In this document: positions 2,518 to 51,430 of the stretch, in pieces
How positions within the stretch are numbered: position 1 is the stretch's first letter
Layout of the letters: each line of letters begins with the position of its first letter
Origin: Cyanidioschyzon merolae
Taxonomy: Eukaryota
Strand: one strand, 5' to 3'
Length of the DNA stretch: 64,000 nucleotides
NCBI GenBank assembly: GCA_000091205.1
Contig: AP006502.2
Program-made: the position numbers and the translations under genes
The notes under the pieces: model-generated
Database searches by the model: none
What the model was told of the DNA's origin: nothing
The model's input: the letters and a program-made list of their open reading frames with translations, nothing else

Positions 2518-2706
2518 TGATACGGACGCCTCAACCCGACGCCCTCAGTGGCATGGCAAAACCGTTCTGTCTCCGTGCAGTACCTGCTTCAGCGGGATAA
2601 GCGCTACGGCGAGAGCTCAAAACAGCTACTCGGCACACGATAGAACATACGAAACGACCAGTATACCCGAGAGGAAGTATGGGTTATAGAACTTGAAGGT
2701 AGGCGC
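2518..2706 (+). repeat. Copy 1 of a ~190-bp dispersed repeat (second copy at 12443-12625), ~80 % identical, same orientation
   Basis: Manual alignment: the core gcacacgatagaac(a/g)(t/a)a(c/t)gaaacgaccagtat(ac/tt)ccgaga(g/a)gaagtatgggt(t/c)at(a/g)(g/t)aacttg(a/g)aag and flanking blocks are shared between the two loci. Confidence 0.6.
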
Positions 2707-3246
2707 TTCATCATTAACGCTTTCCCGAAATCCAGTATCCGTTCCGAATTCTGGAATCCAAGGTCAATCTAAACATTTTGTCATCTGAAAAACTTCAGTT
2801 ATGCGGAACGCTCCGCGTATTGGACGCCCTGCTCGCAAGCATCTCCAGTGGAGCTCTGGCCGCCTTGTCTGCCGCTAGCATCTTTTGTGCTACTGGGGGA
2901 TCACTGCTCCGACACAATGATAAGGTGGCATGGAAAATGGCCTAGTTCATTCAGTAACCCGCTTACGAGCGAGCAAGATTTGCGCTGATTGGCTAGTGCA
3001 CCCAGATGCACGCAACCGACGGCATGGAATTGGGTCAAGTCTGTTCAAGAATTCGTTCACGAACGAGTAACATTTTTGCTGTCGGGGTATCGTGCCTGAG
3101 TGCACGCATCCTGCACCATGAACGTGAGATCAGGTGAATGGAACAGCCCTGAACGTGTCGTATTCTTTAGTGTCATTTGCAGTGAAGGAAACGGCGCTGG
3201 AACAAAGCAAAAATGACGCCAAAGCGGGGCATCGCCGTCGGATCGG

Positions 3247-12442: not shown

Positions 12443-12625
12443 GATCCCATCGAGCCGATGCCCTCTGTGGAATGGCAAAGCTGTTCTGTTTTTGTGCTGC
12501 ACCCGCTCCAGCTGTTTAGGCGCTGTTGCGGATGCTCTCGGCAGGCGCTAGGCACACGATAGAACGAATGAAACGACCAGTATTTCCGAGAAGAAGTATG
12601 GGTCATGTAACTTGGAAGCAGCATA
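12443..12625 (+). repeat. Copy 2 of the ~190-bp dispersed repeat, 318 bp upstream of the eIF1 ATG
   Basis: See copy 1 (2518-2706). Confidence 0.6.
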
Positions 12626-13749: not shown

Positions 13750-15205
13750 ACCCCCGATGCGTGCCATCGAATGCTTTTTTGTCAGTGTAGAGCAGGAGAT
13801 GGAAATCAAGATGCAATACACCGTAGAGATCGTAGGCGATTTCCCTGCAGGATAGATATTCTTAACTGAACAGTGCAAGGAGGACTGCATTAATCCGTCA
13901 GGTCAGTCATACCGAAATACACAGATAATCGACGAACGCTGACAGAAACAAATATATGCGCTCCACGCTAATAACAGATATTCTCAAAGCGTGCTTGCGG
14001 TCCTTGGTAGTAAACGGACCATTGATCACCTCACGAAGAGCAATAGCGACGATAGCGGACACATCGGCGTCTCTGTTTCTCAGCAGTTGGATCGTCCGGT
14101 CCCGCAAACAATGGGGTACAGTCGCAAAATTCCTAGTTCAAGCACCGCTATCTTTCACTGAAATCGCAATGGCAGAATTCCTAGAAGCTTGCGATCGGTA
14201 TGAAGCACAGATAAGTCGGTTTGTTTTTTTTTCAGTCGATGAGACTTCCCTCTGACAAAACGGTCTCAGCGCATATGGGTACTCGCGGAGCAGGAAGCCC
14301 CCTGTATGCACGATGGAAATCGAGAAGAACGAGGACATCTTCCTCTGTTCTAACTGCAGGGAATTCATCTGGCGGCCTCCGTTTCGCTCGTAGAGAGGGC
14401 TCATCCAACAGCATCGTTTTCGTAGCATCATTCAAGACTTTTCCCCTTACGTCTAATGACTTCCATCTATCGGACAACGGAAAATTTCACCGTTCTCTGT
14501 GCGTTGGAACTTTTGCCGACGCTAACGGGGTAGAGCTGCTTTTCATTCCTGTGTAGGCCCCGTGGTTCAACTCCATCGAAGGAGCGTTTTCTATCGTGAA
14601 ACTTAACGATCGCGTCGCTGGACAAGTCCCTACGGCTTCCAGCACACTGGGGCACTTATTGACTTTCTAGCTCTGCGAATTTCCATACCTAAAGGCATAA
14701 AGAGCAGCTTTCATGCGAAGAATTACAAAATCCAAGGGAAGGGTATGGAGATGGAAATCGAGGATCCTGGAGGCCCGCCATCCTCGGCTGCCGGAAAAGA
14801 ACGAATAGAATCCTCTTCTCGCGAAAAGCCGAACGAAGAAGAGCCAGTGACGAAGAAGAAGATGGGAAATGGGTAAGGACAGTGGTTCGCCCGATGGTAC
14901 GATGACGAGACTGTTGTGACACAGGGAGCACGAGTACTAGTAATCCTTGCAATAATGTGTTCAACCAGCGGCGGGAAACGCATGGAGTTCTTGAACCGAG
15001 ACTTCAACGCCGCCATTCATATCAGAAGATGTGCGGTGCTCAAGACAAGATCCGCGGAGCTGACACGACCCAACTTCCTGGGGCAGTCTCTCAGGCTCGA
15101 AGTGCACGGTGAAAAACTGCAACCGATAGCAGGGGAACGGTCAGAAACGGCTGGGAGGCGCCTGTGAGTTGGTATATATATGCAGCCTATGGCAGCGAAA
15201 CGTTC
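13750..15205 (+). mobile_element. Long copy (A) of a TnpB/Fanzor-like DNA element, ORF degenerate (frameshifts and stops). Fills the spacer between the eIF1 and CCT2 3' ends
   Basis: C-terminal peptide CSTSGGKRMEFLNRDFNAAIHIRRCAVL gives the RuvC-III DRDxNAAxNI hallmark. About 1.4 kb is collinear at nucleotide level with copy C (49415-50800, minus). The 3' module ctctcaggctcgaag...ggctgggaggcgcctg...tatatatg is shared with copies B, C and D. Confidence 0.55.
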
Positions 15206-19040: not shown

Positions 19041-20471
19041 ATGCCTCCAGTAATAGATGTTTGCGACTCGTTTGCCACAAGTGTACCATGGCTGAATATG
19101 CTGGACTCACTATCGCTTCCGCCGTTCCGCTCCCCGGAGGCGTGCACAGGTCTATTCCAGTATTCACTCGAATCGTTTTGCTGCGGCCAGTCTGCCTTTA
19201 GCGCGCAGAAGATAGGCGAAGTCGCTGTCATGATTGTGAGGATTGCTTGTGGCCCTGGTGTTCGAAAGACGCTGCATCAATCGCTGGCTTCTGCGAAGCA
19301 TGGCGTGCGATGTACGTCTCAACAGAAACGCGCAAACCCGGCAGATGCTGGGAGAGAGACATTTATAGAGAGCTCGTCAGCGACGCCTTCGGGGAAAGAC
19401 CTAAGACTTAGTCGATCGCGCAGCAAAGAGAACGCACCGGATCACGCATGGGCGCGAAGTGTTACGGGTGACGTACTGTTTACGGTAACAGATCCAACCG
19501 GTGTTCTGATGGATGGGACCATGCATGCCGGAGCGTACCATCGCATTCTCCAAGCGCGAGAACATCTCATCGGCAGTAGCATCGTGAATGAAAGCGGCAG
19601 CATCCAGACAACTGCTGCGTGCGCCTTGCTCGACGGCACCGAATGTGGAACCGTATTGTTGCTGCGGGACGCAACCTTGCTCCACTTTGCGAAGAGCGGA
19701 CCCCATCTGAGCGTCCATCCCGTTAATATCGCCGGAATATTCCTAGCTGGAGACCGTCCCTCGCTGCGCGTCCAACGATTCTTGGATGTCTCTCGAGCGC
19801 TAAGTCGTAGCCAGCTTTTCGACTCTTATGCCTTCGCTGGGCATTTCGCAGCGGGCGTCCTTCGAAAAGAGTCGGATGCTCTGGTACACGCCGCGGACAC
19901 CGACGAAGATCGCGAACTCTTGGACATCATCGAGCAAACGGCGGCCGCGGAAAGCCGCACACCGAGCGTCTCGAGAACGATCGCTGGTTCCAGTCATGAG
20001 GCAGAGAACAAACGCATAAGGGTTGATCTAATGTCCTCAGTGACGGGCGATTTCAGGCCGTGGGTGCTCGACGACGAATTCGGCTCCGTGGAGTCGTACG
20101 TTCCGGCATCGGCGCAACCCTTTCGTGAGATTACGAACATGCCGTGTAGTAGCGCTCCCTCTCTGACTCCATCGAAGAGGCCATCGGGCTATCTCTCGCT
20201 CTCAGGGAGCACAGCACCGAATGGTCTCGCGCCAGCCGAAACCCCCGTACATAGCTCCGAAGCTGATTCCTTTCTGCTAGAACTGGCTCGAGAAGCAGAA
20301 AAAAAGCCACTTGCGAGGAGCACGAACGCTGCGGATCCCGCACCTCAACCAAGTAACGTTTCTGGAGACACGGTGCTGGCCGCTCGGAAGTCTGTCCAAG
20401 AAACACCTAGTCCTGCTAGCAGTAAGGACGACCTCGACGTCGTTTTATGGCAACTGGTGCCGGAGACCTGA
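19041..20471 (+). CDS. Hypothetical protein (476 aa, Ser/Ala-rich C-terminal half)
   Basis: Uninterrupted 1.43-kb ORF, far longer than chance at this GC. No family recognised by eye. Confidence 0.45.
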   Translation: MPPVIDVCDSFATSVPWLNMLDSLSLPPFRSPEACTGLFQYSLESFCCGQSAFSAQKIGEVAVMIVRIACGPGVRKTLHQSLASAKHGVRCTSQQKRANPADAGRETFIESSSATPSGKDLRLSRSRSKENAPDHAWARSVTGDVLFTVTDPTGVLMDGTMHAGAYHRILQAREHLIGSSIVNESGSIQTTAACALLDGTECGTVLLLRDATLLHFAKSGPHLSVHPVNIAGIFLAGDRPSLRVQRFLDVSRALSRSQLFDSYAFAGHFAAGVLRKESDALVHAADTDEDRELLDIIEQTAAAESRTPSVSRTIAGSSHEAENKRIRVDLMSSVTGDFRPWVLDDEFGSVESYVPASAQPFREITNMPCSSAPSLTPSKRPSGYLSLSGSTAPNGLAPAETPVHSSEADSFLLELAREAEKKPLARSTNAADPAPQPSNVSGDTVLAARKSVQETPSPASSKDDLDVVLWQLVPET

Positions 20472-20508: not shown

Positions 20509-22025
20509 TGGACTCAGAAACGTCCAATGGTGGAACTCCGTTGTCATCTACCGATTGCCGACGAAAACCCTTCCCAGTGTATAAATACGGTGCTCCCTCG
20601 TTTCTGGATTGCTGAAACCGACCTCACCAATGACTTCATCCAGGAAATCATCCAATATCCTGGCTCATGGCCACAGATGTTTCTCGACGAACGTCGATAG
20701 CGTTGCAGCACAACGCCAGTACCGCGTACGAAACGATTTGCCTGAAAGTTCGGTCGGCAGAAAGTCGCAGGACGCTCCGCAAGCACCAGATATTACCGAA
20801 TGCCGATCGAGTCGCTCAAGTCCTAGTACACCGTGTGCTTGTGTACATTGCGGGGTGTGGCGTATCACAGCAAAGCAGGCGCTCAGCTTGGATTGCCTCG
20901 CCATCTGGTGTTCGGTCTGCTTGCCATACGCCATGCTGCGCATCCGGCACGGAGTTGCGCTGCTCTTGTTCTCTACCAGTTTCAGCAAGCACCCGTGCTC
21001 GTGATGTGTGGATGTCGTCCTGAGCGCATCGATGGGAGTGTTCCAGGGTCCATTCTCGCACACGTTGGACGCCCTCGTTGAAGGGGCAGGAATGCAGGTG
21101 CTGTTCGCTACCGGACGTGTATCGCGCTGGACTCGCGCCAAACGACCCGACTTGTCAGCCGTTTCCATTGCCGCCCTGTAAACGAGGAACCTCCGGTGAG
21201 ACGCGTAAATGCACTTCGTAAAGTCGCTCGAGTGCTTCGCGCTTGCTCACAAACACCAGCTGCAGCTCGCCAAGGAGCCCGCGCACCACACTACACATGT
21301 GTCTCCGTGCATCTCGTGGATCTACGTGTAACGTACGCGCACGATACCCAGTAGACGCGGGACGAGCAAGAACGGTCGGCTTCGGCGGCGGACGCTGCGT
21401 CGCTCTGGAGGGATCAGCTCAGGGTCGCTCTCGCAGGTGTCTTGCCTGCGAGCGGCGGAGTCCCTCTTTAGTGAGTACCCGTGTATCGGCGTATCAGTTC
21501 TCTCCCGAGTGAGGTCTTGTCGAGTGCGAGAAACATCCGTTCGTGGTGTAGCACAGGCTGGCCATTCCGGCACGGAATCCTCAGCATATGGATCAATGCG
21601 GGACGGTCTCGAGTAGAGGCATGCGTTTCTCGTTGTCCAACCGCGTCTCTTCATCAGCGTTTGCATCAGCCATGCGAAAGCTGTGCTTTCTTTGGTCTCT
21701 TCTATGGTATTTCTCGGAAACGTGTGTTATGAAATGAATCGACGAGGAGGTAGTCGTTCAGCTAGAAATTCAAAAATTCTGTTTTCGGTGCTCGACATTC
21801 AACATAAGGCGTAGGCGGTGTGATGCCCATGGACCGTCTGCGTGCAGGACACTTGACTTGCAGAGGTAAACCCATTTTCGGAAGCGAAAGCGGCAGAATC
21901 AAGTCTTTCCGCGAACATTCTCTAGTCGGCAGCACATATTTCTTTTATTGCATACTTGCGAGAAAAACTAGCGAATAGGCGGGTTGGTACAAGTGCTCCA
22001 GAATTCACTGCTCCATGTGTAACCA
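20509..22025. repeat. Copy 1 of a 1,517-bp direct repeat (R), non-coding. Begins 38 bp after the stop of the 19041-20471 gene
   Basis: ORF-track ORFs at 20544-21732 recur identically, offset +4645, at 25189-26377. Boundaries were set by eye at tg(g/t)actcag...tgtgtaacca. About 6 mismatches in total. Confidence 0.85.
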
Positions 22026-23364
22026 ATTCTTTTCTGATGACAAAACGTTTACATCGACCATGGATCCGAGGATTCGGAAAGTATAATGGCTTTCGGGAAA
22101 GCGTCCATCATGAAGCATCTAGCTTCAAGTTCTATCACCCATACATGCTCTCTGATATACTGGTCGTTTCGTATGTTCTATAGTGCGCCGACTAGCTGTT
22201 TTGAGCACCCGCCGTAGCGCTTATATACCGCTGAAGCAGGTGCTGCACGGAGACAGAACGGCTTTGGCATACCGCTGAGGGCGTCGGCTCGAGGCGTGGT
22301 TCATCGGACACGGAGTCGGAGTACTTAATCATTCTAGGAGCCTGGAAGCTGCGCGGAGAGACGCACTGCCTGCGGCGGCACGGTGCGATATACTGGGCGT
22401 CCACTGCGACCAGGGCGACGCCCAGACGCAGCATACACGCTCCTAGTCCCAGATTGAATTGCATTGCGGACGAGTAGCTCAGGTTTCTTTAAAGAACCCG
22501 CCACTGAAGGAAGCATGAAGCACTAGCTAGCCCCGAAGACTCGTCCGGCTCGCGGGACCTTCCGCCTAGAAGGTAAACTTTCCAAGATACTGAAACTTTT
22601 CCCCATTTCAACGCTTACAATTAAGATCAAACGAAACTGTTATCGAGTTGCTAGTCAGTGCATAGTTTCTGTTTTTTTTTCGCATCGACGTCGATGCTCG
22701 GTGGATCAGGGCCTAGTTCCATTCAGCGGCAGCGACGGCGTGCCAGAATCCTGATGGAAGTGCTTTAAGAGGCTGCTTGTTTGAAGGTTAGCCTATTTGC
22801 GCTCGGGTCGCTGCTCTTTCTATATTGTCCGGGAAGAGTTCTTCGACAAGCATTGACCTTAGACGGCGAGAAGCAGCGCTTAGAGTCACAGCAAAGCTGC
22901 TTTCTGCGAAAACTGCGCGCAGGACAAGCGGTGACGCTTCCTTCGAGAGCGGCGCTCTTGGTTTTGGTGCGACAGGAACGGCTCGCAGTTCGGTAGACTT
23001 GGGTTTGGGTGGAGCTCGGAGATTTAAGGTGGTGCGCGAGATTGATAAGCGTAAACGAGTGGCGCGTTCCGCAACGTGCGATTCTTCGTGGCACCGAGGA
23101 GAACGCACGCATCCTCTAGCTTGAGCGTCACGCATTTTGTTTTGCTTACGTTGAGGCCTTCATAGATTGGTGGCGTCTTTGACAAGATCCGGGAATTTTT
23201 CGTTGCCCAGGGGCGAGATTTTTGAGACCAGGGGGTATCCCAGCCAAGTTACCGGAACTGCACCGCACTCGTGGCCGGTGTTCAACGAACGGCGATTTTG
23301 AGAGTCTTCTGAGCACGTATCCAGCGGATATAGTAGCGTTCACGAGACACGTACGTGCTTACCC

Positions 23365-25080
23365 GTGAACCCCTGTCGCCTCTCGAAGGGCATCATGGAG
23401 CATTCCGGCAGCCGGGCCCCGTTGGATCCTGAAGGCGCGGGTGCTCGAACACAGGACTCTTTTCGCGTCTTCTACAGCCAAGATGATGTGAATGGAGGCA
23501 AGCTGTACATAGGCGAAAAGCTCAAGTCCAAAGTTGTGCGTAAGCTTCACTCCCTGTCCATTGAGGAAGGAAACGCGCGAATAGCGGAGTCTTCAGACAG
23601 TGCATTGGAGGAAGGCACGTCCGATGCCTCTCGCGAGGGCTCTTTTGCGCCCTCTCCACGTGCGTCTTCTGCAAGAGCAGCTGAGACTGTAGAGTGCCCT
23701 AAGGTACTATCAGGAGAGAGCGCTCGGGATGTCGCCGCCCACAAGGACGAGCCAATGGTGTCGATAGCGGGGCCTCGTGACCACGCCTCTGCGGAAGCGA
23801 AATCGATCGATAACAGGACTTGGGGCGCAGCGCGGAGCTCAAAAGATCTCTCGTTAGATGATCCGATCAGACCCGTTGTATCTGCACATCCAGTGGAAGC
23901 GCATTCGGATCGACATACGTTTGCGTTCGAGAACTTGAGCAGTCGCCCGCACATCAGAGAGTCTCGTCCAAAGTTCATCTCGAAGTACGTACTTGGGGCT
24001 CGCCTTGGCGAGGGCGCCTACGCCAAAGTCAAGGAGGCCATGGATACGACCACGCTTAGAATCGTTGCTTGCAAAATTGTTGACAAACGCTTCCTACGCA
24101 AAGTGCGCGGTGGCCTCGAAAACGTCCGACGTGAGATCGCCATTATGCGGTCGCTGGATCATCCAAACATTGTGCGCTTGCTAGATGTTATTGATGGTGA
24201 GGATTCGATGAAACTCTACATATTCATGGAGCTCAGCAACGGATGCACTGTTCAGGAGCTCATGGAGCGTGCACCTCAAAAGCGGCTACCACCTGGACAA
24301 GCCCAGTCTTTTTTCGCGCAACTGATCGAAGGACTTGCATATATTCATTCTCGGAATATCGTGCACCGAGACATCAAACCCTCGAATCTTATGCTTGCCA
24401 CGGATGGTGTTCTGAAAATCGCGGACTTTGGTGTAGCCGAATTTCTCGACAAATTCGATGCCGAGGGGCGTATCACGAGGACCGTTGGCTCGCCTGCATT
24501 CCAGGCACCAGAGATTGCGCGGGGTAATGGCATGTTTCTGGGGCGAAAAGTCGACGCCTGGGCTGCCGGCGTCACGCTCTACATGATGCTTACTGGCGAG
24601 GCGCCTTTCAAAGGATCCAATCAGTTTGAACTCTTCCGCAATATAGGCCGGGGCGAGTTTCATATGCCATCTGATTTGATCGACGAGGAATGTCAGGATC
24701 TCTTGCGGAGACTCATGGAAGTGAATCCCGAAGTCCGGAGCACCGTCGACGACCTTCGTGATCACAACTGGTTGCGAAAACGCTACGACGATGAGCATGC
24801 ATGGATTCCGATTCCGCGACGTCATCCCAAAATCCTCGACATGGTCTCTCGCCTGTACGAAGACGATCCCGAGATGTCGACTCAGAGCACGAGTCCCATC
24901 GAGTCAGACGCCGAGAAGAGCAGCGTGCAACGAGCGCAAAGACCCACATCCATCGTCACCACCCAACTTGGTGATCGTCGGAGCATTACGAATGAGGGAG
25001 CAGCAGAACCTACTCTGGAACAGGGCGAATCCGGATCTCCTGGAGAGAGCTCATGGCGCAAACGATGTACTTTAATGTAG
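23365..25080 (+). CDS. STK11: Serine/threonine kinase LKB1/STK11 orthologue
   Basis: Kinase domain: YVLGARLGEGAYAKVKE..., HRDIKPSNLML, LKIADFGVAE, GSPAFQAPEIA, KVDAWAAGVTLY, LFRNIGRGEFHMP. The activation-segment and G-helix motifs are LKB1-specific and are not those of the fungal Sak1/Elm1/Tos3 kinases. Confidence 0.85.
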   Translation: MNPCRLSKGIMEHSGSRAPLDPEGAGARTQDSFRVFYSQDDVNGGKLYIGEKLKSKVVRKLHSLSIEEGNARIAESSDSALEEGTSDASREGSFAPSPRASSARAAETVECPKVLSGESARDVAAHKDEPMVSIAGPRDHASAEAKSIDNRTWGAARSSKDLSLDDPIRPVVSAHPVEAHSDRHTFAFENLSSRPHIRESRPKFISKYVLGARLGEGAYAKVKEAMDTTTLRIVACKIVDKRFLRKVRGGLENVRREIAIMRSLDHPNIVRLLDVIDGEDSMKLYIFMELSNGCTVQELMERAPQKRLPPGQAQSFFAQLIEGLAYIHSRNIVHRDIKPSNLMLATDGVLKIADFGVAEFLDKFDAEGRITRTVGSPAFQAPEIARGNGMFLGRKVDAWAAGVTLYMMLTGEAPFKGSNQFELFRNIGRGEFHMPSDLIDEECQDLLRRLMEVNPEVRSTVDDLRDHNWLRKRYDDEHAWIPIPRRHPKILDMVSRLYEDDPEMSTQSTSPIESDAEKSSVQRAQRPTSIVTTQLGDRRSITNEGAAEPTLEQGESGSPGESSWRKRCTLM

Positions 25081-25153
25081 GATGGGCGCGGTGTTCAGGA
25101 CGGGAAACGAATACTGCGCCAAAAGCGCCATGCTGCAAACCGACGGGGGTCGG

Positions 25154-26670
25154 TGTACTCAGTAACGTCCAATGGTGGAACTCCGTTGTCATCTACCGAT
25201 TGCCGACGAAAACCCTTCCCAGTGTATAAATACGGTGCTCCCTCGTTTCTGGATTGCTGAAACCGACCTCACCAATGACTTCATCCAGGAAATCATCCAA
25301 TATCCTGGCTCATGGCCACAGATGTTTCTCGACGAACGTCGATAGCGTTGCAGCACAACGCCAGTACCGCGTACGAAACGATTTGCCTGAAAGTTCGGTC
25401 GGCAGAAAGTCGCAGGACGCTCCGCAAGCACCAGATATTACCGAATGCCGATCGAGTCGCTCAAGTCTTAGTACACCGTGTGCTTGTGTACATTGCGGGG
25501 TGTGGCGTATCACAGCAAAGCAGGCGCTCAGCTTGGATTGCCTCGCCATCTGGTGTTCGGTCTGCTTGCCATACGCCATGCTGCGCATCCGGCACGGAGT
25601 TGCGCTGCTCTTGTTCTCTACCAGTTTCAGCAAGCACCCGTGCTCGTGATGTGTGGATGTCGTCCTGAGCGCATCGATGGGAGTGTTCCAGGGTCCATTC
25701 TCGCACACGTTGGACGCCCTCGTTGAAGGGGCAGGAATGCAGGTGCTGTTCGCTACCGGACGTGTATCGCGCTGGACTCGCGCCAAACGACCCGACTTGT
25801 CAGCCGTTTCCATTGCCGCCCTGTAAACGAGGAACCTCCGGTGAGACGCGTAAATGCACTTCGTAAAGTCGCTCGAGTGCTTCGCGCTTGCTCACAAACA
25901 CCAGCTGCAGCTCGCCAAGGAGCCCGCGCACCACACTACACATGTGTCTCCGTGCATCTCGTGGATCTACGTGTAACATACGCGCACGATACCCAGTAGA
26001 CGCGGGACGAGCAAGAACGGTCGGCTTCGGCGGCGGGCGCTGCGTCGCTCTGGAGGGATCAGCTCAGGGTCGCTCTCGCAGGTGTCTTGCCTGCGAGCGG
26101 CGGAGTCCCTCTTTAGTGAGTACCCGTGTATCGGCGTATCAGTTCTCTCCCGAGTGAGGTCTTGTCGAGTGCGAGAAACATCCGTTCGTGGTGTAGCACA
26201 GGCTGGCCATTCCGGCACGGAATCCTCAGCATATGGATCAATGCGGGACGGTCTCGAGTAGAGGCATGCGTTTCTCGTTGTCCAACCGCGTCTCTTCATC
26301 AGCGTTTGCATCAGCCATGCGAAAGCTGTGCTTTCTTTGGTCTCTTCTATGGTATTTCTCGGAAACGTGTGTTATGAAATGAATCGACGAGGAGGTAGTC
26401 GTTCAGCTAGAAATTCAAAAATTCTGTTTTCGGTGCTCGACATTCAACATAAGGCGTAGGCGGTGTGATGCCCATGGACCGTCTGCGTGCAGGACACTTG
26501 ACTTGCAGAGGTAAACCCATTTTCGAAAGCGAAAGCGGCAGAATCAAGTCTTTCCGCGAACATTCTCTAGTCGGCAGCACATATTTCTTTTATTGCATAC
26601 TTGCGAGAAAAACTAGCGAATAGGCGGGTTGGTACAAGTGCTCCAGAATTCACTGCTCCATGTGTAACCA
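25154..26670. repeat. Copy 2 of the 1,517-bp direct repeat (R). Begins 74 bp after the LKB1 stop codon
   Basis: See copy 1. Identity about 99.6 %. Confidence 0.85.
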
Positions 26671-27619
26671 TTGCACTCAGTGCACTAGCTCAGCGACGGT
26701 GCCAGTGCAGCGAGTCGGCTCGGGACGCGACGCTGAACGGTAGACACTTGAGCAGCAGCGGCTGGTGGTGGTAAGCGCCTGTTCAAACCTTTTACGTGGT
26801 CCCTGCTCAATGAGAAGTGCTAGGCAGGCTCAATTGTCATCTTGAAGGACGCAGCAGCGGTGAAAGACACCGCATTTGATTTTGAGGATTGATGCTTTGT
26901 CACGGCGGCACATGGAACGTGCCCACAATCCTGGTGCTTTCAACGACCGCTGACGTGTGATGCAGCGAAGTTGCAAGGTCTGTGGAAAGCAGCCAGGGCG
27001 ACGTGCCCAGCGCTGTAGCGTGTACCGGGCGTGATGACGGCTTCTGCTGGGTCATTGCTTCTAATAGACCTCCATTCCTCGGGTAAGCGCGACATCGTAA
27101 CCTCCAGCACCTGGAAACGTCCGCGGAATCTGTTTTACTCCATGGTGCAGCTTCAGGGAAACTACCCTGGAACTCCGACAAGTCGTTTGTTTTCGGCAAC
27201 TGGAAGAGTAGCCACTACTCCACTCTTAACCCGTGGCGTTGCCCGAACCTCGTGCCAGACTCGTCTCTGGGGTTCCCGGTTCGTTCCCACGAGCAGCCGC
27301 GTGCCGACTCCACTGAGGGCGCCAGCTAAGACACCTACAGGGCCACGACAGGTATCGTACGGAGACAGAACGACTCTACCGTCTACTTTTGGGCGTCTTC
27401 GCGGGGTGCGCAAGCGGAGGTACCCTTTGCAACGATGCAGCGGGCTGTATCCTTACACTCGCGAGAGTCCGAGTCACAGGCCCGCCGAACGTTCCCGGTG
27501 GCTTAAACTCGCTCTTCTGACTCGGCTGCGTTCAAGTGAGACAAATCCTATCAAGGCGCATACAGCAGGAATGCATGGCTTTAGGATGAAGCGCGTGGCT
27601 ACTTTTTGGAAATCGCTAG

Positions 27620-29128
27620 CTAAACTTCAGGCTCTGACTTGGTGCTCAGAACACGGGTCTCCTCATCCTGTGCAGCGGTTGCTGGTCGATCTGCGGTGGA
27701 AAGCGCCGCGGAGCTGCTGCCCCGCTCCAACTTTCTGGATGCAAAATTCTTGAAGGGGTTCGCTGGCGAGTTCTCATCAAATGGTTCCACGTCATCCTGG
27801 AGATCTTTGTCTTTCAGAGGCGGATATTGGGAAAAGTCAAGCGGGTCTCGCAGCTTCGGTATGATCGGTGGCGTCTCATTGCGAATAAGATTGAAATCGA
27901 TTTTCCGAAACCACGGATGGCGCTTAATGTCGCTGGCCCCGTTCTCATGTCCGAGTCTTTTGGATGCATCTCGCTTCAGCAGACGTTTGATGAGATTTTT
28001 GCACTCCGGTGAAAGGTGTAGAGATTCATCGAAGCGAATGTTTCCGTGTACAATATTATTGAAAGTTTCATCCTGGTAGGAGCCTTTGAATGGTGTCGTT
28101 CCCGTCAACATCTCGTAGAGAAGAATACCAAACGTCCACCAGTCGACATCGCTCGTATGCCCAACGCCCTGAATAACTTCCGGCGCAATGTACTCCTCGG
28201 TGCCCACGAAGGAATTTGTTGCGTACGGGAGGACAGGCTCAGAATCGACGATCTCAAGATCCTTGAGGTTGCTCCGAGACCCGCGGTTTCCCGAGATCGC
28301 GCCTTTCATGCGATCCAAGAACGAAATCTGATGTTTGATGACACGAGGTGAAACAGGATGCGCCTGCTTGCTCAGATCAAAGTCCGTGAGGGCGATATGT
28401 CCATCAGCGCGCATGAGGATGTTTTCCGGTTTCAGATCTCGGTATATGAAGCCCATGTGATGTAAGTATTCCAGCGCGAGCAGGACCTCAGCCGCGTAGA
28501 AGCGCACGGCATCCTCAGGCAAGCGTTTGTTCGGTTGTCGTTGTAGCACTCGAAAGAATTCTCCCCCTGCGCAGTATTCCATGATGAAATACAGTCGATC
28601 CTTTGTTTGGAAAGATGCATACATCGTAACGATGAATGGATGGTGGGCTGTCGCGAGAATCTCGCGTTCAGTCAAAACGCGCTTCACTTTGTTACGCGCG
28701 ATCATCTCCTCTTTCGTCAGAACCTTCATCGCGTAGAGCTTGGTGGTGCCTTTCAACAGGACAAGATATACTCGGCCAACATCACCCTTCCCAAGTAACT
28801 TCAATTTCTGAAACAAGTGCGGGCCTATCGGTCCGCTAACCGGAAATTCTGGGGTCGGCTGCGCCGCTGACGCAGCCAGCACGTTCTGGTTCTTCCCCGT
28901 TGAGACAACAGCCCCATTCTCTTCAACACTATGCGATGGAGGTGCAGCTGGTGACGGCGAACGTTTTGTTTGAGCGTCAACCTCGGTCAGCGACAAATTC
29001 CGCGCCTCAGTCGTCAAACTCGAAACGTTTTCACCTAGGCCCCCGGGCATTTGTTCTGATAGCTTGAGTGTTCTCGAACGAACGCGTCGCACAACGACCA
29101 GAGCGTAGACTGGAACGGAGCTGCTCAC
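27620..29128 (-). CDS. AGC-family protein kinase, AGC-VIII / Fpk1-Kin82 / phototropin-kinase-like (activation-loop insertion)
   Basis: GFIYRDLKPENILM, LTDFDLSKQ followed by a ~45-aa insert before SFVGTEEYIAPEV, and a C-terminal AGC tail (FD...F). Confidence 0.85.
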   Translation of the reverse strand: MSSSVPVYALVVVRRVRSRTLKLSEQMPGGLGENVSSLTTEARNLSLTEVDAQTKRSPSPAAPPSHSVEENGAVVSTGKNQNVLAASAAQPTPEFPVSGPIGPHLFQKLKLLGKGDVGRVYLVLLKGTTKLYAMKVLTKEEMIARNKVKRVLTEREILATAHHPFIVTMYASFQTKDRLYFIMEYCAGGEFFRVLQRQPNKRLPEDAVRFYAAEVLLALEYLHHMGFIYRDLKPENILMRADGHIALTDFDLSKQAHPVSPRVIKHQISFLDRMKGAISGNRGSRSNLKDLEIVDSEPVLPYATNSFVGTEEYIAPEVIQGVGHTSDVDWWTFGILLYEMLTGTTPFKGSYQDETFNNIVHGNIRFDESLHLSPECKNLIKRLLKRDASKRLGHENGASDIKRHPWFRKIDFNLIRNETPPIIPKLRDPLDFSQYPPLKDKDLQDDVEPFDENSPANPFKNFASRKLERGSSSAALSTADRPATAAQDEETRVLSTKSEPEV

Positions 29129-32100
29129 GCAGACACACCCTTCTCCGGGTTTGCGCTGTGCGTAAGTCTCCTATCGACAAGGTAAGCGCGTTTGAAAAAC
29201 CCGCTGTACGCCCTTCTGAAGTCAACTTTTCGAATGAAGACCCAAGGGGCTTGTAAAAAAACTGGCAGTACGGCTCGTGGTGCGATTGCTGTGCTGCCCC
29301 AAAGCTCTGGCAAGCAGCTCTGCCGCGAGTGCTCGCTGCCTACAGTCTGCCTTTTAAGTGACACCACACTCGACGACTGCTGATGCCAGTCTGCTTCCTC
29401 TGAAGACCTTCAAAGGCTTACCACAAGTGTTATCGTCTAAACGCTCCCAGTGTGTGGACGCTGAGGTGCCTCAGAGTATGCGGCGAAAACTCGCCCACAA
29501 CACGTCAAACATTCGAAGCGCATACCGCGGGATACTCGATGGTGCGTTCATGAGGCCGATTCGCTGCGCAGCGCGCGGCTGCCGCGGGCCTCAGACGCCA
29601 ACGATCTCAAATTGCGACGGTGATGGCGTGCGCGTCTGCCCGAGGTGCGCGCAACAGTCGCTGGCAATGATGCGGAGTTCTTCGGGATTGGGCTGGTGCG
29701 GAGGCCGCAGCTGGAGGCGGCCAGCGTAAGGATCAGATCCTCTGCACAACGGACTATGAAACGTATTGGGGCCGCGCCCCAGGTCAGATACCTCTGTGAT
29801 AGACATCGAGGTAACGCGCTCCACTGCATGAGTATTGGAACAGAGATTCCACGCATGAACCAGGGTAGCATCTGTACGTAGGGGGCATAGCTGAATCGAA
29901 CAAGCTCATGATCTTCGATGGAGCACTACTCCAGAACGGATAGAGCCTGCAACAGCCAGCAGTGAAACAGAGACCTTCTACCTGGTTCCTGGAGGCTTCC
30001 GCTGCTCGAAACAATCCTGACTTGATATAGGGTCCTGGAATGTGAAAATTTCCTGCTTCAGCGATAGCAGGGATATGAGGCGGTTGCATGCGCCGCCCCT
30101 GACGTTGAGAATCTTGTAACACGGGGCGCGTCGCTTCCTGCGAATCATGGCAGTGGCTCCACGGATGAGGCTATCTCGGCCAGCTTGGCTGCGATCTCGT
30201 GCTGATTTCGCTGCAATTGTCTCGCGTTCCCGGCTCGAATGCTTCCTCAGGCAATGGCGGGGGTCTCTCACCGCCCCAAGGGCCGTCCATGGAATCCCAC
30301 TCGTGCGATCTGGTTGAAAACGTTCCATATATAAATACAATGGAGCTTTCGAATTTCTGGTACACACTGTTTGTCGGAAATAAGCTCGTGATGCGGGCTT
30401 CCTCTCGTTCGCATTGTCGTCCACGTGACCGAGTAAACATCTAAAGCGATCAACTCGAACTGAGTCTCATGGAGCGATCCACGGTGCGCTGCATTATGCG
30501 TCCTGCGACCAACGCAGACCGCAGTATCCGCGAGGCAGCAATTGCAGATCCTAGTGACCGTGGAGCGCCTCGGCCAGACGCAAACACTGCGTCTCTGACA
30601 TTAGCGTCGTGCCGGGTGTTCTGTCAAGCAAAATTGTCCAGTGAGTTTACTACCATAGCATTCGGGGTAACAGTCTAGACTTCGTGTTGAAGGACGTTCA
30701 ATTGCCACGGCCGACTGTGAGTACTCCAACGAACAGGCTATTCGTCGCGAGGATGAGGTGCCCAGCGATTGCTGTACGATCTGTTCGTTCTATTCGCTTG
30801 GCTCGAGCCAATAGACCTATTGCGGGCAAAAAGGGCTCAAACCCATCGAAGCCAGGATCCTTTATGGAAACTCTAAACGCTACCTATTAGAACGGTATCT
30901 CTGTATTCAGCAGGGAAGCTGAAAATGAACAGGCTCAAGCGGCTGCACGAGAGCTGCCGCTGATCAGCGCTCATACACCACCTGCTTGGCGACCGAGGCC
31001 ACTTGTTACAGCCTGTCCAGTATCCCTGTAAGGAACAGAGGCCCAGTCCGGTAGACCTGCGAATTCGTACGGATATCCGCCGGTTGCGACGCATCCCAAC
31101 GGACATCTGGTCGAAGATCCCACAGACAGGGATCCCCTGGCTCGTATAAACGATCCTAAACCCAAAACATTCATGTTCAAACCCGAATTCGATGCTTTCG
31201 CAAAAAAACGCTTTTCTCAGAAAAGAACATTATCGACAAGTACCTGCCAGATTGATTTGATGGACAGAGCAGTTGCACTCACCATAGACACCTGATTGCT
31301 TGATTGATATCGGCATCTTGGAGAGCGTTTATCATGTTTCATCCTACCTCCGGGTTTTACCAGCTACCACAGGTACCTCCCTTGCGAGACAGCGGCCATT
31401 TCGTACGATCCACTCAGCGCGAAGCCTGCTACGGGCGTCCACAGTGGCGCCCACAGCGCCGGCGCGGATGCAGGACGGAGTCAGAACGCCTTTACCACAC
31501 CACTGGAGAAATCAGCTCGAAATGTGATTCACTCGTCACAGGGTCGGGACGCGTGGATATTCTGGGATATAGTAGACCGCTCAGACAGACCTACTGCTGG
31601 CACTGGCGCGAAACGAATCTCCAGGAGACCGTATCGACCAGGGCGGGGCCGAGACGCAGGCCGCCCTCTCCGGCTACAGAAGAGACTCTATTGCGGAGAG
31701 GTTGCTCCGGATTTGCCACAGCTTTCGGTACTGGAGGCGCACGGTGCTCCATTCTGCATACTCCTCCAACTGGCAGGATCTTTGTCCTAGACAGTAACCC
31801 TCCGAATGTACATAAATCATTCCTCGGTTCATCTCTTGCCTGGGACGCGGGGAACATCGATGAACTACTTGCCAGCTAGCACACAGTTTCTTTTGCCATT
31901 TTCTTTCTAGCTGCTGTCCAGTGGTTAGGTTCTCTCCCTAAAACGAGCCCATAGCGGACGACGCGGCACCGAGTACAGCTGCATCGGACGCGTCTCGCTA
32001 CACTCCTGTCAGGCAAAATTTGCACGATTCCTCTCACGTATCTGGGATATGCACACTAAAGCTTGGACCTCGCTCGTGTCGTCAAAACCAGCCTACGCAA

Positions 32101-39019: not shown

Positions 39020-39515
39020 CGTGTAGTGTATATATGCATCCCATTGCAGATGCCTCCCGGACTTTTTCGACCGGCCGCCCACTACTGGTTGTAACGTCAT
39101 CCCGTACAATTCGACCCTGAGCGGTTCTCCCACAAAGTCGGCTCGTATCAGCTCCGGGGGTCTCTTGTCCAGCACTGCACATCTCCCGATGTTGATAGCA
39201 GCGTTAAAGTCTCGGTTCGCGAACGCTATGCGTACCCTGCCTCTGGTTGAACTCACCATTGCAAGGATTCCTCGAACTTGTGTCCTCTGTTCTACTACAG
39301 TCTCGACCTCGTCCCGTCAGGCGAGCACCTTTTCTCGTCTACCTGTCCTCTTTTTCTTCGCCGCCGCGCGCTTTCCCTTGCTCGATGAAGGGCGAGAAGA
39401 GGATTTTTTCCTTGTTTTCGGACAGCCGGCAATGAGGCCCTCTAGGATCCGCGACTTCCATCTCTATACCTTAGCCTTTTTACATTTGTAAATGAACGCA
39501 CTTCGAGAGCATTTG
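39020..39515 (-). mobile_element. Short, internally deleted copy (B) of the TnpB/Fanzor-like element: 5' terminus joined to the 3' ~470 bp
   Basis: Peptide RIAFANRDFNAAINIGRCAVL, the 3' module and the ...gcatatatac terminus. The 5' junction aaatgct(c/t)t(c/t)cg matches the 5' end of copies A and C. Confidence 0.5.
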
Positions 39516-40678
39516 CTCTAAACCACGAAAAAAGCATTAAATGATACGCACTTGGCGCCAGAGCACAGTTGAGGTGAAGTGCTATGACAAGAATCCTGCA
39601 CGTGCCAGGTCCGCAGCACGTCTAACATGCTCGTTGCTTTGCTCAGGGCAGAAGGTTGAGGCGCGAGCCTGATTAGCGTTGACGCGATCTGTGTTCCCAT
39701 GAGCGAAGCTACATTCTGGTGCATCAGGCGCAGTTGAGCGGATATCGGTGAGCTCACAAGTCGCCACAGGGTATGGTGCTGTGTGCTAGCCAGTCACCGC
39801 CCGCCACGTAGAACCCCGATAGCAGGACACGCAGGATACGATTCGGAACGACGAGCAACCGGGGATCGGTGCTGACCTTCTTCAGCGCGTCCAGAGCGGA
39901 GGCGAACCCTGTGCTCTATGTTTTTTCGTTCTCGATAATAGTTCCAAGACGCTCAATAGCTTGCGCACCCGCTTCGTGTCCAGGATCCGTGAGCGTGCTT
40001 CCACCAAGCGCCAGGTGCGGCTGTCGTTCTGGAACGCTACCAGCTGTTGCGAAGCAATCGTCAGCGTCAAGGGTGCAGGCATTTCTCGAATACGGCAGCG
40101 TGGAGTAGCTCTGAAACGCACGTTCGTACTTCAGGGTGCAAATCGCGACCTGGTAGCCGTCGATGTCCGCGATGGTGCGCAGAGAAGATACCAAACGCAC
40201 CTATCCATCCATCTTCCCAACTATGCATGTGTGCATGTGTGCGTAAAAGCAAGCAGGCGGCTATCCATGCGTCTATGTGCACAGGCAACCAGCAAGCAAG
40301 CAATCAAGCAAGTTGCTTTCTCAGGTAGAAGACGATATTGTGACCTGTGCGCCACGGTCTTGTGGCCATTCAGCAGCTACTGGTATAGGCAACGCAGCAG
40401 GTGCAGGAAATGACTGCGGACTCCAGCGAGCGCTGTATCGATATTGGGACACATGTTGTGAGAGCTGAACTGCAGTTTATTGGTGTGCGTGTCCTTCCCT
40501 GCGGGGTTTCCGTCCGTCTGGTATGGGTCTCCCCATGAGCGCGTACGCAATCAGGAAACATCGCTTCGTAACGCTCGCCGGTTCCTTTCGATGACGTTTC
40601 TGCGCTCCATGCGGAGCCTCTACATAGCCGTATCTCGTTCATGATGCTAATGCATGACTTTCCATGATCATGCATACC

Positions 40679-43524: not shown

Positions 43525-43644
43525 TTCTTTCTGGACGAGTTCGCTGCAGGAGGTCCCTAAAAGGCTGCCACGCTTCGTGTAGGATTCTTTCTGGACGAGT
43601 TCGCTGCAGGAGGTCCCTAAAAGGCTGCCACGCTTCGTGTAGGA
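43525..43644. repeat. Perfect tandem duplication of a 60-bp unit (2 copies)
   Basis: ttctttctggacgagttcgctgcaggaggtccctaaaaggctgccacgcttcgtgtagga occurs twice, back to back. Confidence 0.95.
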
Positions 43645-49414: not shown

Positions 49415-50800
49415 TCCTGGGACCATATAGGATAAATTAATACTCATATGTAGACACCTCTCCGCCCTTTTCGACTCGCAGACTGTTACGCATTCAGTTT
49501 TGTCCAGACAACCTTCGAGCCTGAGAGGATACCCCGCGAAGTTGGATCGCGTCAGCTCCGCGGGTCCCGTCCTCAGCACCAATGATCGCCTGATGTTTAT
49601 GGCAGCATTAAAGTACCGGTTCATGAACTTCGTGTGGGCTCTGGCGCTGGTTGCGCTCATCAATGCAAGAATTGCGGGAACTCTCGTACTCTCTGTACCA
49701 TTTGATACTCGGTCAGCTCTCTGTGCGTTTCGATCGCAAAAGCGCTTCGCGGGCACTTCTCCAGGTCGACCTTCTGAAGTGGAGACCCCAGCTCACCCTT
49801 TTGTTTATTTTAAAACGAGCGAACTTGTTTGTTCGTTTTGGTGAGGACGTTCCCGGAAGCGGGAAAGACTTGCGGATGCAAGACCGGATGTATTCTGGTA
49901 TCACTGTGCGCTGAACGCTTAAGCGATTCTACCAATGGAGCGCTCAATAGGCTTAATTAAAGAAAAGCGTCCTTCGATGCGGTTGAACCACGGAACATAC
50001 GGAGGAATGCAAAGCAGTTCTACTCCGATAGAATCGGCAACAGCTCCAACGCAAGGGGAATAGAGAAATGCAACGTTGTCCAATAGAAAAGCGTCGCCAG
50101 ACGTCAGGGGAAAGTCTTCAATGGCTCGACGTAATGGGCGCTGTTGTATGAGTCTTCTCTACGAGCGAAACTGAGGCCGTAAAATGAATTCACCCCAGCT
50201 AGAACAGAAGATGGTGTCGTCATTCTCCGCGAGTTCAACCGTACATTCAGCAGGCGCCCAGATCTGCGAGTACCCATATACGCTCCGACCGTTTCATCCA
50301 AGGCAAGTCTCATCGAATGAAAGAACAGACCGACTTCACTCTGCCTCAGATCGATAGCGACGTTCCTGGAAACTGTCGTTGCGATTTCGATGGAGGACGG
50401 TCGTTCATGGCATTGGACATTTTCGCGACTGTATCCCAGTGTTTTTAGGACCATACGAACTAGCTATTGAGAAACAGATACGCCGTTGGCGGCTACCACT
50501 GTCGCTTTTGCTTTCCGTAAGGTGATCAACTGGTCGTTTGCTGCCATTTAACGCAGTCAGTCTTTAAGAATATCGGACATTGTCGCAGAGCGCATATTCA
50601 GGGTTCTTTCAGTGTTCCTTAGGTATCTGAGTTCTTTTACGTGGATGACCTGATGGAGGAATGCAGTCCTCCTTACACACGTCAGTAAAGAATATATATA
50701 TCCTGCAGGAAATTTTTCTACGATCTATAGAGTACATTGCATATTGACACTGATCTCCTGGTCGTCACCGCGAAAAAACATTCAATGACAAGCAGCAGTG
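49415..50800 (-). mobile_element. Long copy (C) of the TnpB/Fanzor-like element, degenerate. Its 3' terminus lies ~110 bp upstream of the ARM-repeat gene ATG
   Basis: Peptide FMNRYFNAAINIRRSLVL on the minus strand. About 1.4 kb is collinear with copy A, including upstream blocks (FFHSMRLALDETVGAYMGTR matches A's FFQSMRLPSDKTVSAHMGTR). Confidence 0.55.
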
Positions 50801-50885
50801 CTGGAACACAGTGAGTTGAGGACGATCAACGGAATGCTTGCTCGTATAATCTTTCATCTCAAGTGTTTTGCCCCTCTGCTGCGCG

Positions 50886-51430
50886 TCATCAAATGCTTTT
50901 TCGTGCTTTCTAGCAGACGCGTATGAACTGCGTTTGTTCTCAAAAACAAAACATATAAGGAAAAAATTATGGACATAGAATTCGGGGATCCTGGAGGATC
51001 GCCATCCCCGAGTTCCAGAGAGAAACTGAAAAATTTCCCTCTCGCCAACCATCGAGCGAAGAAGAGCTAGTGATCGAGAAGAAAAAGAAAATGAAATGCG
51101 GAGATAGGCGAAAAATCGTGTTTAGCTCACGGGACGGTGACGGGATTGTAGTGGCGCGGAGGGCACAAGTTCGCAGAAGCCTTGTAATGTTGAGTTCGAC
51201 TAAAGCGAATAATCGTGTAGAGTTCATGAACCGAGGACTTAACGCTTCCATCAATATCAGACGATGTGTAGCGCTGAAGGAATTAGCCTACGTACTTCGT
51301 GGGGGAGCCTCTCAGGCTCGAAGTGAACAAGAGAAACTGAAATCGATAGCGGGGAGTTCGTCAAAAAAGGCCGGAAGCGCCTGCTAGTTGATGTGTATAT
51401 GCACTCTGTGGTCGCGAAACCGATTTCGTA
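50886..51430 (+). mobile_element. Short, internally deleted copy (D), head-to-head with copy C (~90 bp between their 5' ends)
   Basis: ORF MIEKKKKMKCGDRRKIVFSS...NRGLNASINIRRCVAL plus the 3' module ctctcaggctcgaagtgaacaag...gcgcctgctagttgatgtgtatatgcac. The 5' junction is aaatgctttttcgtgctttctagc. Confidence 0.5.

Follow-up and report, generated by a model that had tools for sequence, protein, structure and literature searches.

Direct 1.5-kb repeats around STK11 in Cyanidioschyzon merolae are a local duplication of spacer DNA, with junctions that suggest a single templated insertion

Two nearly identical non-coding sequences enclose the STK11/LKB1 kinase gene of C. merolae 10D. We document that this arrangement is a real local duplication of spacer DNA in the 10D lineage, with two copies in the window (the whole 64,000-nucleotide stretch of chromosome 20 that was analysed) and in wild contigs. 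The first copy, R1 (20509-22025, + strand), lies in the spacer between CMT323C and STK11, and the second, R2 (25154-26670, + strand), lies in the spacer between STK11 and a convergent gene for an AGC kinase. The junctions lead us to think that, on balance, R2 was formed by a single microhomology-primed templated insertion of the R1 core downstream of STK11.

R1 and R2 have the same orientation and lie 4645 bp apart, one on each side of STK11. Compared at this fixed offset, they match over 1517 bp with six mismatches (20511, 20518, 20823, 21333, 21392 and 21881 in R1 coordinates) and no indels, giving the 99.6% identity and the roughly six differences of the original prediction. Chance cannot account for a repeat so long and so similar. 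Searches of the window with R returned the two copies by blastn, and neither blastn nor tblastx found further ones. R1 starts 38 bp past the stop codon of CMT323C and R2 starts 74 bp past that of the STK11 ORF, which ends at 25080, both distances being as predicted. No notable hairpins or inverted repeats were found at the R boundaries. A TATA-like or AT-rich motif, TGTATAAATACG, occupies R positions 70-81, and its only exact matches in the window are at 20578-20589 (+ strand) and 25223-25234; one wild contig (L051) departs from R2 directly after this motif. A small dispersed repeat unrelated to R, which we call S (22030-22297, - strand), begins 4 bp past the 3´ end of R1. It is 86% identical to 2526-2791 and 74% identical to 12450-12619, and many wild contigs end within it.

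The gene upstream of R1, CMT323C (19041-20471, + strand; flank A), encodes a hypothetical protein that exactly matches BAM83287.1/XP_005539323.1 and has a weak HROB-like Pfam match under the curated cutoff. The unique segment between the repeats, U (22026-25153), holds the STK11 coding sequence (23395-25080, + strand). Its product has a Pfam Pkinase match at 5.9e-63 and the same sequence as the C. merolae 10D protein XP_005539324.1, 'serine/threonine kinase 11'. Among its named matches, which come from red algae and animals, the majority carry the STK11 annotation. The bracketed kinase is thus a genuine STK11/LKB1 ortholog, as had been proposed from the sequence. Downstream of R2, flank B is an AGC-family (NDR/S6K-like) protein kinase (27620-29128, - strand; Pfam Pkinase 7.9e-71) whose best PDB sequence matches are RSK, PKA and CBK1. 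The order CCT, HROB-like, STK11, AGC kinase (- strand), abhydrolase and RPS2 is also found in Cyanidiococcus (L035), and the identical six-gene order occurs in another relative (L032), whose STK11 is 69% identical. The position of STK11 between CMT323C and the AGC kinase is ancestral. No homology to R is detectable in either relative. The spacer upstream of STK11 measures 1842 and ~1763 bp in the two relatives versus 2923 bp in 10D, and the spacer downstream measures 719 and 362 bp versus 2539 bp; with R subtracted, the 10D spacers come to ~1406 and 1021 bp, near those of the relatives.

R encodes no protein. Its three longest ORFs hold no Pfam domain, and a search with the longest, which we call ORF167, among 5.8 billion proteins found only itself, as its own copies in wild contigs. 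Only 1/9 of the population SNPs in ORF167 falls at a third codon position, showing no third-position bias. These results bear out the earlier description of R as non-coding, with no domain in its ORFs and no gag/pol. R differs from wild contigs by 0.46-0.86%, a divergence within the range seen for most spacers nearby and higher than in most coding segments. Rfam gave no match at a permissive E-value (18-30 kb) or at gathering score (whole window), there are no tRNA genes in the searched window, and CMT323C and ORF167 in their 10D forms gave no match when looked up as exact sequences.

The same arrangement recurs in wild DNA. Our wild sample comprised about 50 hot-spring metagenome contigs that are ~99.3-99.9% identical to the 10D locus; across regions, 10D-like wild populations are roughly 0.1-1.2% divergent from 10D. 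The fetched wild loci contain the junctions A|R (n=22), U|R (n=27), R|U (n=4) and R|B (n=10), and no sequence other than A, U or B adjoins the ends of R in them. At R position 3, all wild contigs have G where CMT323C precedes the repeat and T where STK11 does. The bases that distinguish the copies at positions 3 and 315 are found again in wild contigs whose anchor is A or U. An unbiased scan of JGI metagenome contigs with 28-mers yielded six contigs, in each of which R has A or U on its left, and none of the contigs fetched via three members of the ORF167 cluster (P0180, P0176 and P0185) showed R contexts beyond those known. By its contexts in wild contigs, R is therefore low-copy and not dispersed. 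High copy number, which the original prediction had named as grounds for giving it up, was not seen, as no third context of R occurs in the wild contigs. The duplication had also been called recent, and this holds only in a relative sense, the structure being common to 10D and 10D-like wild populations.

The origin of R2 is best approached through three 10-mers at the junctions. The first, m1 (TGGACTCAGA, 20509-20518, + strand), lies directly before the R1 core (20519-22025) and is the proposed donor microhomology. The second, m2 (TGTACTCAGT, 25154-25163, + strand), is the left copy of a duplicated target 10-mer, and its right copy, m3 (TGCACTCAGT, 26672-26681), follows an extra T at 26671 (together 26671-26681, + strand). 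The 1507-bp R2 core (25164-26670) is hence bracketed by a direct 10-mer, m2 on the left and T plus m3 on the right; no matching 10-mer lies to the right of R1. m1 is identical to m2 at 8/10 positions, and at 9/10 to the m2 variant TGTACTCAGA, position 10 of m2 being polymorphic in wild contigs (A in L003 and L004, T elsewhere). m3 matches m2 at 9/10 positions in 10D and at 10/10 (TGTACTCAGT) in one wild contig (L041), and m1 and m3 are 8/10 alike. Two of the six R1/R2 mismatches fall in the first 10 bp (P ~3e-4 at the core mismatch rate), a mismatch density ~75x that of the R core. Across the window, 10-mers with at most one mismatch to m2 occur at about 6-8e-5 per position per strand, and the chance of an m2-like 10-mer within a few bp of the R2 boundary is ~3-5e-4, in an argument that was framed after inspection of the junctions.

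These features suggest that a single copying event placed the R1 core (1507 bp) in the spacer that follows STK11, by a replication template switch of the FoSTeS/MMBIR type or by synthesis-dependent break repair. The pre-insertion site would have read ...GGGGGTCGG-TGTACTCAGT-GCACTAGC..., with R1 already present. A nascent 3´ end terminating in the native TGTACTCAGT, 74 bp past the STK11 stop codon, would have annealed to TGGACTCAGA, 38 bp past the CMT323C stop codon, and 1507 nt would have been copied from R1. The strand would then have returned just upstream of the 10-mer, added one T and copied the 10-mer again, leaving target 10-mer, R core, T and target 10-mer; the return exactly 10 nt behind the point of departure, plus one T, is assumed so as to fit the data. 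After such an insertion, CMT323C and STK11, both on the + strand, would share their downstream sequence, which may be why the insertion was tolerated. Microhomology-mediated templated insertions and insertional duplications, by FoSTeS/MMBIR or synthesis-dependent repair, have reportedly been described in human copy-number variants and in yeast. The proposed event resembles them in that R would have been copied once from a nearby template, 4645 bp upstream and in the same orientation, with microhomology between donor and target (m1 versus m2, 8-9/10) and a 1-nt insertion and short duplication at the return junction. It differs in that its microhomology is 10 nt and imperfect, compared with the usual 2-5 nt, and the mechanism is here read from junctions alone. 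The direction from R1 to R2 rests on parsimony, since the empty target site was not recovered and the spacers of the relatives cannot be aligned. Their STK11-AGC kinase spacers (362-719 bp) are too short for R but unalignable with 10D, and no m-like 10-mer site was found in the spacers of L032 and L035.

The reverse direction is the most credible of the alternatives, and we consider it rather unlikely. Here the R core plus T, of unknown or foreign origin, would first have inserted downstream of STK11 with a 10-bp target-site duplication (m2/m3), and R would then have been copied into the CMT323C-STK11 spacer via a template switch at m1 with a clean return. Such a history would account for the 10-bp direct repeat that brackets R2 alone and requires no re-copying at the R1 junctions. 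The resemblance between the 10D spacers minus R and those of the relatives also means that R could be new at both sites. Nevertheless, it requires two events, and no donor or other copy of R appears in the wild contigs. R has no match in plasmid and phage collections (blastn) and no exact match among IMG/VR viral contigs, and it lacks terminal inverted repeats, a transposase and poly(A).

Less probable still is a tandem duplication of the 4645-bp [R+STK11] unit by unequal exchange at m-like 10-mers, followed by deletion of the second STK11. It draws some support from m1 and m3, which sit at both ends of the [R+U] unit, and from one contig (L009) that reads U-R-U, as an array would; U-R-U is, however, also the loop path of a collapsed R-U-R assembly graph. 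The deletion that this scheme needs would have had its breakpoints exactly where R ends and m3 starts, without microhomology, and comparison within the window revealed no trace of a second U downstream of R2. A tandem duplication would present the whole unit twice, head to tail, and the duplicated part is R only. The original prediction had offered duplication of an [R + LKB1] unit and its later partial loss as one possibility, but what the junctions fit is one insertion, of R only.

We give very little credence to an error in the 10D reference assembly, in which a single R would have been written twice. Five wild contigs (L018, L019, L037, L041 and L047) do read A-R-B without STK11, as such an error would predict; the metagenomes that yielded A-R-B contigs are 3300005861/ERZ27249350, JGI24721J44947, Ga0123519 and 3300052694. 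However, R1 and R2 differ at six sites, two of which carry the copy-specific bases found again in wild contigs, A-R1-U is spanned by L026 and L042, and U-R2-B is spanned by L008 and L050. Ns stand at variable sites of one A-R-B contig, L037, diagnostic position 10 among them, a pattern that suggests collapse during assembly. A-R-B and U-R-U contigs fit rearranged alleles and a collapsed R-U-R assembly graph equally well. Allele patterns across R show the wild contigs, which come from different samples, to be in part mosaics that run through a collapsed repeat. In addition, the 10D reference was finished to completion (PMC1955436). The assembly collapse or expansion raised in the original prediction is contradicted by the recurrence of all four junctions, with copy-specific bases, in independent hot-spring assemblies.

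Similarly far-fetched is the reading of R1 and R2 as two solo LTRs or as the LTR pair of a non-autonomous element that captured STK11. The R-U-R layout and the TG...CA ends (R starts TGG/TGT and ends ACCA) are those of an LTR retrotransposon or a LARD/TRIM-type pair, but none of the other defining features is present. The composite (ACGTT|...|TTGCA) is not flanked by a target-site duplication of 4-6 bp, and neither is R1 (ACGTT|ATTCT) or R2 (GTCGG|TTGCA). By inspection, ATTCTTTTCTGATG follows R1, with no tRNA-complementary TGG, and the sequence before R2, AACCGACGGGGGTCGG, is just ~60% purine and no clean polypurine tract. There is no gag/pol, the interior is STK11 in ancestral gene order, R has two copies only and two contexts in wild contigs, and the initial TG of R belongs to the 10-mer microhomology, behaving as target or microhomology sequence rather than element sequence. 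The completed C. merolae genome contains 0.7% transposons and no LTR elements (PMC1955436). Together, these points effectively refute an LTR pair, and the earlier observation that retroelement genes are missing holds: R is not a retroelement. A cut-and-paste DNA transposon or MITE was rejected because the R ends share only TGG/CCA and the 10-bp direct repeat is present at R2, not R1, and a non-LTR retrocopy was rejected because runs of A or T are missing from both ends of R on both strands and the TSD-like 10-mer occurs at R2 alone.

Whatever their origin, R1 and R2 are still about 99.7% alike, probably in part through gene conversion. The one clean site is R position 443, which is G in both 10D copies and T in every wild copy of either type; site 789 gives partial support. 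The pair resembles the low-copy repeats (segmental duplications) whose non-allelic homologous recombination (NAHR) deletes or duplicates the gene between them in being >1 kb, >99% identical, direct, placed around a single-copy gene and marked by signs of gene conversion, and the repeats themselves have the sequence properties of a potential NAHR substrate (at least 1 kb, >95% identity, direct orientation, not a transposable element). It differs in that R is only 1.5 kb long and lies in a 16.5-Mb genome poor in repeats. With direct repeats on both sides, STK11 could be lost or amplified through homologous recombination, as originally suggested. Deletion or amplification by unequal exchange is possible, and metagenome contigs cannot prove it. 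We consider it improbable that R-U-R is recombinationally active in hot-spring C. merolae, with A-R-B deletions of STK11 and circular or tandem [R+STK11] forms segregating. If it were, LKB1, a master energy-sensing kinase, would vary in copy number, and the shared, apparently transcribed 1.5-kb sequence might couple the 3´-end processing or regulation of CMT323C and STK11.

In general, R1 and R2 are an ordinary kind of local duplication and an ordinary structural feature. They do have practical consequences, as the repeats fragment and mis-join this locus in short-read assemblies of wild Cyanidioschyzon, giving A-R-B contigs without STK11, and knock-ins at STK11 by homologous recombination could mis-target through them. 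Spontaneous deletion or duplication of the STK11/LKB1 locus could also occur via the repeats. The C. merolae genome is among the simplest and most repeat-poor of eukaryotes (PMC1955436), so any young 1.5-kb duplication is a rare, clean record of DNA gain, and the R2 junctions preserve the apparent signature of a single microhomology-primed copying event.

The STK11/LKB1 gene is bracketed by two direct copies of a 1517-bp sequence, R, whose homology is unbroken over exactly 20509-22025 (R1) and 25154-26670 (R2), with 0 indels and 6 mismatches in a fixed-offset comparison (4645 bp), at 20511, 20518, 20823, 21333, 21392 and 21881 in R1 coordinates. The ORF at 19041-20471 ends 38 bp before R1, and the kinase ORF (stop at 25080) ends 74 bp before R2. 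Re-deriving the coordinates, mismatches and distances to stops, we found that the original prediction had described the pair correctly in all particulars. It had also named the gene correctly: the protein encoded at 23395-25080 is identical to XP_005539324.1, annotated 'serine/threonine kinase 11' in Cyanidioschyzon merolae 10D, and most of its named homologs, which range from red algae to vertebrates, carry the STK11 annotation, so the LKB1 label is correct. The upstream ORF is CMT323C, which, like the kinase gene, lies on chromosome 20 (1,621,617-bp record). Downstream of R2 is an AGC-family kinase ORF on the minus strand (27620-29128). The 3´ end of the AGC kinase gene is overlapped, on the plus strand, by a 240-aa ORF (27031-27753) that metagenome annotation calls as a gene (239 aa); lacking any Pfam domain, this ORF is probably spurious. 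Neither blastn of R against the whole window nor tblastx found any further copy.

R-U-R, where U is the unique segment 22026-25153 with STK11, is a genuine, fixed duplication that places two copies of non-coding spacer around STK11/LKB1. By exact-protein look-ups and one 28-mer scan, we gathered 55 contigs that match the window at ~99.3-99.9% identity; they come from acidic hot-spring samples, with assemblies from JGI, ENA and Logan. Sites of this kind at Yellowstone are dominated by a C. merolae 10D-like alga (PMC11662350), and we infer that the IDs of the sampled contigs belong to that study. With A denoting the CMT323C side and B the AGC-kinase side, the fetched loci contain A|R in 22 cases, U|R in 27, R|U in 4 and R|B in 10, counts that include a few loci representing the same contig fetched twice, and no fetched locus has sequence other than A, U or B next to either end of R. 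Two contigs (L026 and L042) span A-R1-U and two others (L008 and L050) span U-R2-B. R position 3 is G in all A-anchored contigs and T in all U-anchored ones, and position 315, as in 10D, is C in A-anchored contigs (the A-R-B type set aside) and T in U-anchored contigs. The spanning contigs and copy-specific bases indicate that wild genomes hold two distinct copies, as does the 10D reference, which was finished to completion (PMC1955436). Together with the recurring junctions, they rule out an assembly error, so the collapse or expansion raised in the original prediction is contradicted. R is not the high-copy repeat that had also been contemplated, at least in wild contigs: an unbiased 28-mer scan across JGI metagenomes yielded 6 contigs, 6/6 with A or U to the left of R, and a single protein cluster (14 members) shows homology to the longest ORF of R; all contigs fetched via three of its members (P0180, P0176 and P0185) have A, U or B context.

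R was said to be non-coding, and this is upheld. Its three longest ORFs lack Pfam domains; the longest (167 aa, minus strand) has no homologs among 5.8 billion proteins except the same ORF in wild R copies, and only 1/9 population SNPs within it fall at a third codon position. R is 0.46-0.86% divergent from wild contigs, which exceeds the divergence of most coding segments and compares with 0.4-1.2% for most adjacent spacers. R contains no Rfam family or tRNA and has no match in plasmid, phage or viral-contig collections.

The gene order SUI1, CCT (minus), HROB-like gene, STK11, AGC kinase (minus), abhydrolase, RPS2 is common to 10D, Cyanidiococcus yangmingshanensis (L035) and an uncultured relative (L032-L034) whose STK11 is 69% identical. 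Nothing in L032/L035-type relatives aligns to R, although coding regions align at 70-81%. The spacer upstream of STK11 measures 1842 bp in L032, ~1763 bp in L035 and 2923 bp in 10D (~1406 bp minus R); the downstream spacer measures 719 bp, 362 bp and 2539 bp (~1021 bp minus R), respectively. In the relatives, the convergent STK11-AGC kinase spacer is not long enough to have contained R, and their spacers are too diverged to align, with no recognizable empty site. Judged from these sequence comparisons, STK11 occupies its ancestral place and R has been added.

How the second copy arose is suggested by the junctions. The first 10 bp of R hold 2/6 mismatches and the remaining 1507 bp (the core) hold 4; at the core rate, a 10-bp stretch would carry at least two mismatches with a chance of ~3e-4. 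These 10 bp read TGGACTCAGA in R1 (m1) and TGTACTCAGT in R2 (m2), and a related 10-mer, TGCACTCAGT (m3), lies at 26672-26681, one base past the end of R2. In 10D, m3 is 9/10 identical to m2, and in L041, a wild contig, its sequence is TGTACTCAGT, a 10/10 match to m2. A direct 10-mer thus lies on both sides of the R2 core; the R1 core has a similar 10-mer before it and unrelated sequence after it. The motif is not enriched, 10-mers with at most one mismatch from m2 occurring at ~6-8e-5 per position per strand in the window, and the probability of meeting an m2-like 10-mer no more than a few bases from the boundary, computed after the fact, is ~3-5e-4. L003/L004 carry a donor-like A at position 10 of m2 and all others a target-like T, a variation that fits a hybrid junction.

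From these observed junctions, we infer that R-U-R most likely arose by a single microhomology-primed templated insertion, copied from R1 to R2. In this model, a growing 3´ end would finish copying the native 10-mer downstream of STK11, switch onto the similar 10-mer downstream of CMT323C, copy 1507 nt of the CMT323C-STK11 spacer, and rejoin its first template immediately before the 10-mer, which would be copied again after the addition of one T. This is the simplest single event giving all three 10-mers. The reverse order, in which R was first inserted downstream of STK11 with a 10-bp target duplication and then copied upstream, is a possible but less parsimonious route. So is the tandem [R + LKB1] duplication with partial loss that the original prediction put forward as a possibility, since the deletion would have to take out exactly the second U. 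A transposon is rejected, as each copy would have its own target duplication and the likeness of m1 to m2 would be left unexplained. R begins with TG and finishes with CA, but an LTR pair is rejected as well: neither the composite nor either single copy is flanked by a 4-6 bp target-site duplication, and there is no tRNA primer-binding site in the sequence 3´ of R1 (ATTCTTTTC...), no polypurine tract 5´ of R2 and, as originally noted, no gag/pol and no domain in the ORFs of R; a host gene in conserved order makes up the 'internal region', and the completed genome was reported without any LTR retrotransposons (PMC1955436). R-U-R is not a mobile element.

The window also contains other repeats. 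A small dispersed element (~170-268 bp, copies 74-86% identical) occurs at 22030-22297 (minus), 2526-2791 (plus) and 12450-12619 (plus), in spacers upstream of genes, with one copy beginning 4 bp past the end of R1. Many wild contigs end inside this element, so it probably has multiple copies across the genome; relative L032 retains a 37-nt piece at 84% conservation, and we found no Rfam match and no convincing covariation. Diverged interspersed repeats in both orientations (13758-15201, 39102-39550 and 49513-51420; 65-73% identical) may be copies of the ~3.2-kb C. merolae element reported in 253 copies (PMC1955436). A perfect 60-bp tandem duplication lies at 43525-43644 (43525-43584 and 43585-43644, 100% identity).

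Identical junctions in 10D, which was isolated in Italy, and in wild populations imply that the R duplication is older than their split. The two 10D copies have 4 core differences, and ~8 positions separate each of them from its wild counterpart. R position 443 is G in both 10D copies and T in all wild copies of both types, and position 789 has a similar pattern, two contigs excepted. This pattern tentatively suggests at least one gene-conversion event between R1 and R2, on one clean site and small counts, with the evidence limited by several wild contigs being mosaic paths through the collapsed repeat (for example, L043 has R1-type alleles yet is joined to B).

Some contigs hint at transcription. 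Those of the JGI series Ga0506xxx, in which R1 is contiguous with CMT323C and R2 with STK11 and the AGC kinase, are all ≤6.7 kb with recurring starts at ~18600, ~22760-22800 and ~29525, and resemble transcript assemblies. In one sample of this type (JGI 3300050365), two contigs join the locus to the 5´ UTR and coding sequence of highly expressed genes. L042 follows A-R1-U to 22586 and continues with TTTTTTTTATTAAGC-ATG and the coding sequence of a ribosomal protein S9/uS4 gene absent from the window; it is probably a chimeric assembly, perhaps of transcripts, a structural variant being less likely. L051 runs through STK11, m2 and R2 positions 1-81, then continues from 25234 with the 5´ UTR and coding sequence of a Sec61-beta-like protein. 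This junction (R2 position 81) directly follows the motif TGTATAAATACG, found within the window in R only. Either L051 is a chimera that marks where an STK11 mRNA ends, or R and the Sec61-beta promoter have the TATA-containing TGTATAAATACG in common. If L042 and L051 are RNA chimeras, an STK11 mRNA would end ~154 nt past its stop codon, inside R2.

Five contigs (L018, L019, L037, L041 and L047) read A-R-B without STK11, and one (L009) reads U-R-U. These are the products expected of unequal R1/R2 recombination, and equally of assembler paths through a collapsed R-U-R graph. Collapse is favored over true deletion for the A-R-B contigs because L037 shows Ns at variable sites, diagnostic position 10 among them; two samples with an A-R-B contig also gave separate STK11 contigs (L003 with L018, L004 with L019); and L018 and L019 combine T at position 315 with G at 1373, which by 10D copy-specific alleles is impossible through a single R1/R2 crossover, although 1373 is not cleanly copy-specific in wild contigs. 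L018 and L019 also lack ~38 bp present in 10D at 31079-31116 (the alignment skips from 31078 to 31117), indicating that 10D and wild populations differ by a small indel polymorphism. R-U-R is not evidence of STK11 copy-number change; the R duplication adds a further case to a well-known type of event, in an unusually repeat-poor genome.
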